From NCBI RefSeq assembly GCF_003334385.1, contig NZ_QOWN01000202.1: DNA of 328 nt; one strand, given 5' to 3'. This DNA is from Escherichia coli. Its GTDB lineage: Bacteria > Pseudomonadota > Gammaproteobacteria > Enterobacterales > Enterobacteriaceae. Within the stretch, counting starts at the first letter, position 1, and every line of letters starts with the position of its first letter. Below, one piece after another: positions 1-328 of the stretch. The notes under the pieces were generated by a model that had not been told where the DNA came from, made no database searches, and saw nothing but the letters and a program-made list of their open reading frames with translations. Both the position numbers and the translations under genes were made by a program.

Positions 1-230
1 TGCACACCGGATTCCATCCCGCCATCGCGGGAACGCCGGGAAAGGACCACCACATTGCGGCGCAGTTTTCCCCTGCGTACCGGTGCCCGTGACACCACTT
101 CTTCTTTCAGCACATTCGCACCCGCACGGGTTGCCTCACGCAGCACCCGGTTATTTTCCGCACCACTCAGAAGCTGCAAATCACGGCTTATTTCTTCAAG
201 TCCCGAAAAATCCAGCAGGGTTTCGATCAT
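1..230 (-). CDS. Phage neck/tail-component protein, HK97 gp10-like family (putative); N-terminal 76 codons, gene continues past window position 1
   Basis: Seen in sequence: minus-strand ATG at 230-228 with a GGAGG core 6 nt upstream; the frame is open for 76 codons to the window edge. Codon choice is enterobacterial-like (ctg, gaa, gcg, gtg, cgt, ccg, aaa dominate). Translation: MIETLLDFSGLEEISRDLQLLSGAENNRVLREATRAGANVLKEEVVSRAPVRRGKLRRNVVVLSRRSRDGGMESGV. Family call is from memory: the 'GL-EL' N-terminus followed by an 'APV-x-G-LRR-' motif resembles the HK97 gp10-like family (Pfam PF04883, as I recall). No search was run. Confidence 0.78.
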   Translation of the reverse strand, partial: MIETLLDFSGLEEISRDLQLLSGAENNRVLREATRAGANVLKEEVVSRAPVRRGKLRRNVVVLSRRSRDGGMESGV

Positions 231-328
231 TTTTCCCCTCCCAGCCGACAAAGAATTTCCAGGCGCCCGCCGGTCGCATCCGGCACGGGCACCCCGACAA
301 CATTCAGGATACAGTCACGCCAGGGACC
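227..328 (-). CDS. C-terminal 33 codons of an upstream phage morphogenesis gene (possibly a head-closure/head-tail adaptor protein); 5' end lies beyond window position 328
   Basis: Seen in sequence: minus-strand frame open from position 328 to the TGA at 229-227, translating GPWRDCILNVVGVPVPDATGGRLEILCRLGGEK*. The stop overlaps the downstream ATG (ATGA), a typical coupled-gene junction. Codon usage is reasonable (ctg, ccg, gcg, ggc, gaa). The product guess is inference from the usual gene order in siphophage neck modules, not from recognisable sequence similarity. Confidence 0.5.
   Translation of the reverse strand, partial: GPWRDCILNVVGVPVPDATGGRLEILCRLGGEK
235..242 (-). promoter_or_regulatory. 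Shine-Dalgarno / ribosome-binding site for the gp10-like gene
   Basis: Seen in sequence: minus strand reads GGGAGGGG (plus-strand cccctccc at 235-242). The GGAGG core at 241-237 sits 6 nt upstream of the ATG at 230-228. The site lies inside the last codons (G-G-E-K) of the upstream gene. Confidence 0.6.

Follow-up and report, generated by a model that had tools for sequence, protein, structure and literature searches.

Genomic context of the window

The window, by which we mean the whole 328-nt stretch of Escherichia coli DNA analysed here (58.8% G+C), is part of a lambdoid prophage that is Pankowvirus-type and Stx-phage-like. Megablast detected matches of 90-99% identity in 92 phage records, most of them from Stx1- and Stx2-converting phages, Pankowvirus YYZ-2008 among them, and in the same range of identity in 1,244 of 5,426 complete E. 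coli genomes, the E. coli matches numbering 2,912. The best match to a complete genome was NZ_CP145698.1 (locus L002), which is 99.1% identical, whilst an exact copy of the window was not found in IMG/VR. The portal gene in this best match (L002 3910-6328) is annotated as a frameshifted pseudogene, and with its portal frameshifted that copy of the prophage may be defective.

Among the matches listed, gp10-family and head closure genes are annotated on the opposite strand at the window, and no plus-strand CDS is annotated there. The order of the sense genes is portal, Ad1 adaptor, head closure, gp10-family, tail terminator, major tail, chaperones and tape measure, which is that of an HK97-type head-tail joining module. 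The window covers the junction of two of these genes (Table 1). The ATG of the gp10-family gene is the reverse complement of 228-230, and codons 1-76 together with part of codon 77 fall within the window. When the full-length L002 protein was used as the query, its residues 1-76 being identical to the window translation, it matched TIGR01725 (NCBIfam) across the full profile, 1-120 (82.5 bits against a cut-off of 30.8, E = 3.5e-23). The head closure gene ends in a TGA stop codon, which corresponds to 227-229 in reverse complement. Its product matched TIGR01563, the SPP1 gp16 / HK97 gp7 type of NCBIfam, at 23.7 bits against a cut-off of 20.6 (E = 3.8e-5), and the gene sits between Ad1 and gp10, like its counterpart in HK97.

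On the sense strand, the window corresponds by homology to the gene 7 / gene 10 junction of HK97, the gp10-family protein being about 74.5% identical to HK97 gp10. Both share the order Ad1, Hc1, gp10 and tail terminator, as well as the same 4-nt overlap of gene coordinates. The window differs in being of the Pankowvirus / Stx-phage lineage, in sharing about 68% of its nucleotides with HK97, and in having a head closure gene of 116 codons compared with 112 in HK97. The GGAGG that precedes the gp10-family gene lies in the sense-strand context tgtcggctgggaggggaaaaATG. Its position 6 nt upstream of an ATGA overlap is an arrangement that would suit translational coupling of the head closure and gp10 genes.

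Table 1. Features of the window and of its stop-free plus-strand frames (window coordinates; position 1 is the first nucleotide)
Feature	Position	Strand	Remarks
HK97-gp10-family gene, 5′ part (Ne1 neck / head-tail joining)	1..230	-	Annotated in relatives; TIGR01725; third-position variation
Phage head closure gene, 3′ end (Hc1, HK97 gp7-like)	227..328	-	Annotated in relatives; TIGR01563
ATGA start/stop overlap of both sense genes	227..230	-	Sequence; CDS 2784-3230 and 3227-3577 in L001 and L002
GGAGG Shine-Dalgarno of gp10-family gene	237..241	-	6 nt upstream of ATG, within end of head closure gene
Stop-free frame +1	1..328	+	109 codons; judged non-coding
Stop-free frame +2	2..328	+	Six-frame translation; unreported in the original prediction
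TTG start candidate	55..57	+	Only canonical frame +1 start in window; AAGGA 8 nt upstream
Terminator-like hairpin, AAGCTGCAAATCACGGCTT then ATTTCTTCAA	171-189	+	6 pairs, 3 G-C
Possible stop site Leu18-Gln19	gp10		P = 0.10
Possible stop site Val76-His77	gp10		P = 0.14
Possible stop site Leu91-Asn92	Head closure		P = 0.16
Possible stop site Ala101-Thr102	Head closure		P = 0.12

Extent and composition of the open frame

The original prediction concerned the plus strand, where frame +1 was said to run through all 109 codons without TAA, TAG or TGA. Six-frame translation bore this out and returned the same product as had been quoted (CTPDSIPPSRERRERTTTLRRSF...). The accompanying descriptions were equally accurate. 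There is no in-frame ATG within the window and the TTG at 55-57 is the sole candidate start; an in-frame GTG is absent as well. Arg, Ser, Thr and Pro, in which the frame was said to be rich, make up 55% of its residues. The rare codons that had been pointed out are also present, with AGG occurring three times and AGA and CGA once each among 19 Arg codons.

The frame is longer than the window reveals. In the closest relatives (loci L001 and L002) it runs past both window ends and extends for 143 codons from stop to stop, between window -71 and 360, with an in-frame ATG at window -44. Together with the AAGGA preceding TTG 55, this ATG just beyond the window is among the features that would favour a real antisense overlapping gene of Pankowvirus-type prophages, having about 134 codons if read from ATG -44 or about 101 if read from TTG 55. 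Of the other two plus-strand frames, frame +3 has one stop within the window. Frame +2 is open for 119 codons in L002; one or more stops interrupt it in 68 of 78 close relatives, mostly at window 188-190.

Chance expectation and the geometry of possible stops

Mir et al. 2012 (PMC3454372) argued that long alternative-frame ORFs in bacteria exceed the expectation from codon bias genome-wide, so that dismissing all such ORFs outright is disputed in the literature. Because of this argument, we used a null that fixes the sense proteins rather than one that fixes codon frequencies alone. Both sense proteins were held constant and their codons redrawn from local usage in 20,000 trials. Frame +1 was stop-free across the window in 57% of these synonymous resamplings (P = 0.57), and a run of at least 143 codons arose in 52%. 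Frame +2 was open in 19%, and frames +1 and +2 were both open in 11%. A first-order Markov model of the window gave a probability of 0.37 that frame +1 is open.

Long antisense runs are also abundant in the surrounding genes. Within the structural module of YYZ-2008 (23.2 kb), stop-free antisense runs reach at least 109 codons in 42 cases and at least 143 codons in 26, the longest having 340 codons. Such runs cover 65% of this module, and at least one antisense frame is fully open in 31% of all its 328-nt windows. The length and openness of frame +1 are within expectation given the sense proteins and their codon usage. Openness no greater than chance predicts under each of the three nulls (0.37, 0.57 and 0.31) argues against an antisense gene. 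As a separate observation, two open antisense frames, as seen here with +1 and +2, occur in 2.5% of the 328-nt windows of the YYZ-2008 structural module.

The reason that frame +1 is so readily open lies in its phase. It is the codon-aligned antisense frame of neither sense gene and, because the window spans the junction of the two, its phase relative to the sense codons shifts at 227-230. Opposite gp10, frame +1 pairs with sense positions 3|1,2, and a stop there needs NNY|TAN, that is a Tyr codon, or NNT|CAN, a His or Gln codon. Opposite the head closure gene it pairs with sense positions 2,3|1, and a stop needs NTT|A, NCT|A or NTC|A. Residues 1-76 of gp10 contain no Tyr, no His and a single Gln; Val76-His77 provides a further possible stop site that straddles the left edge of the window. 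With both proteins fixed, there are only four dipeptides in the window at which a stop could be created (Table 1), and 0.51 stops are expected. At probabilities of 0.10-0.16 for each of these sites, frame +1 is therefore open more often than not. Moreover, with just four possible sites in its 109 codons, its openness is nearly uninformative. Counting the sense dipeptides able to create a stop in a given antisense phase is a check that can be reused at other loci.

These counts refine the reasoning given with the original prediction, in which the composition and rare codons of the frame were those expected of a shadow ORF opposite a GC-rich gene. The shadow-ORF part of this explanation holds. 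However, G+C content and rare codons are not the main effect, given that there are only four possible stop sites. Openness is instead a passive consequence of the proteins that the two minus-strand genes encode and of their codon choices. The start of the run is set by a conserved gp10 motif, NAFYWRF, in which Phe-Tyr (TTY TAY) always yields an antisense TAA or TAG. This Phe-Tyr lies at gp10 codons 101-102 (window about -74 to -72), and the stop opposite it is a shared ORF boundary in 12 of 15 homologues (among loci L003-L007 and L088-L095), ranging from E. coli to Burkholderia and Pseudomonas phages; the remaining three have a stop earlier than the Phe-Tyr. The other end of the run is simply the first suitable trinucleotide that the head closure gene happens to supply. 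Among homologues, the position of this head-closure-side end varies between 25 and 424 nt upstream of the gp10 ATG.

Frame +1 in close relatives and divergent homologues

We compared the window with 78 close relatives from IMG/VR, which share 91-99% nucleotide identity with it. Frame +1 is open in 77 of these and has identical boundaries in 76, an observation that could be counted in favour of an antisense gene, although the null expects openness too. The one exception is L048 (IMGVR_UViG_3300015183_000013), a contig 95% identical to the window, which carries TGA at window 1-3 through a sense-synonymous change of the Val76 codon to GTT. The other relatives encode this residue with GTC (44) or GTG (33). 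The GTT allele is a singleton, since an exact-pattern scan of IMG/VR returned L048 alone, as one metagenomic contig; by itself it counts for little, and the stop could be a sequencing error.

Divergent homologues gave a divided answer to the question, posed with the original prediction, of whether the frame stays open. The same phase is open for 124 codons in HK97-like phages and for 116 in Klebsiella phages, as a gene would require, but this too is expected under the null. It is closed in three others, where a stop in the same antisense phase falls at sense codon 64 in Evi (Thr-Gln), at sense codon 68 in OS31 (Gly-His) and at sense codon 3 in H4907 (Ile-His). The stops in homologues fall at Tyr, His and Gln contexts, matching the geometric prediction. 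Where the frame is open, the null predicts as much, with a probability of about 0.57, and it is not kept open beyond chance. Stops in homologues had been named beforehand as the mark of a compositional artefact; their occurrence in L048, as well as in the divergent Evi, OS31 and H4907, speaks against an antisense gene.

Sequence variation in the sense genes

The second mark of an artefact named beforehand was normal synonymous variation in the sense genes. Diversity was calculated from 55 unique haplotypes across the head closure, gp10 and tail-terminator genes. Inside the antisense run, diversity at sense codon positions 1, 2 and 3 was 0.009, 0.003 and 0.077, respectively. Sense third-position diversity was therefore not suppressed, at 0.077 inside the run (57 of 143 sites polymorphic) versus 0.039 outside it (70 of 233), which supports the shadow-ORF reading over that of an overlapping gene. 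This test has little power in the gp10 part, where the third positions of sense and antisense codons are the same nucleotides. For the same reason the gp10 part cannot discriminate between the readings, and 35 of its 49 variants are silent in both frames. Conservation of the antisense amino acids in the gp10 part was considered as a sign of constraint and rejected, since it follows automatically from the coinciding third positions.

The head closure part is more telling. Here sense position 3 corresponds to antisense position 2, and therefore every change that is silent in the sense gene alters an antisense residue. We identified 32 variants in this part: 24 are synonymous in the sense frame and nonsynonymous in the antisense frame, 4 are the reverse and 4 change both. 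An antisense residue is thus altered by 28 of the 32, and purifying selection on the antisense peptide was not detected among them. Such free accumulation of antisense-nonsynonymous changes counts further against a gene. The pattern of variation as a whole is fully explained by the sense coding frames.

A side observation from the same haplotypes is that third-position diversity around the Hc1/gp10 junction (L002 2929-3360) is approximately twice that of the flanks of the same genes, and that the tail terminator gene has the lowest value, 0.028. The raised diversity at the junction may reflect mosaic recombination among lambdoid prophages.

Gene signals and database searches

We also searched for gene signals and for relatives of the antisense product. 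The antisense peptide had no match in PHROG, Pfam or NCBIfam. Its codon log-odds relative to local sense usage were negative, at -0.41 for the window and -0.32 for the full run, whereas sense gp10 scored +0.60. No Shine-Dalgarno sequence was found at the ATG at window -44 and no sigma-70-like site was found upstream on the plus strand, both by consensus scans, which are weak tests. The Arg-Asn and Val-Leu codons of the sense strand account for both TTG 55-57 and its AAGGA.

A search of the 143-aa antisense translation against 5.8 billion protein clusters returned one match, P0001, at 39% identity. This is a protein of 181 aa encoded at L097 1501-2046 (GCA_008711435.1, VXJR01000001.1), in a region where the gene calls are short fragments. 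When its contig was examined by tblastn, homologues of the head closure and gp10 proteins were found on the other strand, each split between reading frames. P0001 itself is stitched together from segments of all three antisense frames and is therefore an annotation artefact rather than a protein family. As evidence for a gene it was rejected, being an antisense call on a frameshifted assembly and a mosaic of the three antisense frames. Save for this one miscall, the antisense frame has never been called as a gene.

An alternative that leaves the open frame irrelevant is that the plus strand produces a non-coding antisense RNA modulating the late head-tail joining genes. Pervasive antisense transcription is known in E. 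coli (PMC7457138), which lends this idea general plausibility, and the locus itself contributes nothing specific to it beyond one weak terminator-like hairpin at window 171-189. The number of terminator-like hairpins found, one, is what shuffling would give (0.9 expected), and this hairpin is probably a chance occurrence. Neither strand of the window matched Rfam at E up to 1, and the consensus scan of the plus strand gave a single sigma-70-like match, at L002 3520-3547 beyond the downstream end of the frame, and none upstream. Given in addition that the sense coding frames account for the variation, we regard an antisense RNA as very improbable.

Comparison with known systems

In EHEC, genes that overlap others in antisense have been put forward and in part validated (PMC9927249, PMC5960689, PMC6294744, bioRxiv 10.1101/2020.11.18.388249), and the reports based on Ribo-seq (PMC9927249; bioRxiv 10.1101/2020.11.18.388249) speak for looking upon frame +1 as a gene. 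It resembles ano and asa of E. coli O157:H7 (PMC5960689, PMC6294744, PMC9927249) in being an antisense ORF within annotated genes of an EHEC-type genome. However, candidates of the ano/asa type are backed by RNA-seq and Ribo-seq signals as well as by mapped promoters and phenotypes. For frame +1, consensus scans gave no promoter or Shine-Dalgarno support, the frame contains stops in homologues and its antisense residues are unconstrained. Moreover, the main text of the EHEC overlapping-gene preprint makes no mention of phage head or tail genes, and a literature search found, in the main texts examined, no Ribo-seq-supported antisense gene within EHEC prophage structural genes.

That frame +1 is a real antisense gene is likewise very improbable. 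The most specific form of this idea, in which Pankowvirus-type Stx prophages express the 134-codon ORF (ATG at window -44 to the stop at 358-360) as protein in lysogeny or on induction, as a young, lineage-restricted overlapping gene, too recent for signals of conservation or constraint, is no likelier. If the frame were a gene, the head-tail joining module of Shiga-toxin-phage relatives would harbour an overlapping gene, which would be of moderate interest for phage genome annotation. Frame +1 is almost certainly a shadow ORF, a by-product of the head closure and gp10-family genes, and we infer that no protein is made from it. The original prediction had judged the frame most likely to be non-coding for the same reason, and the stops in homologues together with the normal synonymous variation of the sense genes support that judgement. 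The outcome is a clean negative of little consequence, and frame +1 can leave lists of candidate overlapping genes.

The frame shares several properties with the shadow ORFs treated by Mir et al. 2012 (PMC3454372). It is likewise a long stop-free frame opposite real genes, with a pseudo-protein composition rich in Arg, Ser, Pro and Thr and a non-native codon usage, and such frames are likewise common locally, as the 42 runs of at least 109 codons in the 23 kb of the YYZ-2008 structural module attest. The classical shadow ORF, however, is codon-aligned and takes its stops from the rare codons TTA, CTA and TCA, whereas frame +1 is not codon-aligned. Unlike the classical case, it is open because the N-terminal part of gp10 has so few Tyr, His and Gln residues, and it crosses a gene junction with a shift of phase relative to the sense codons.
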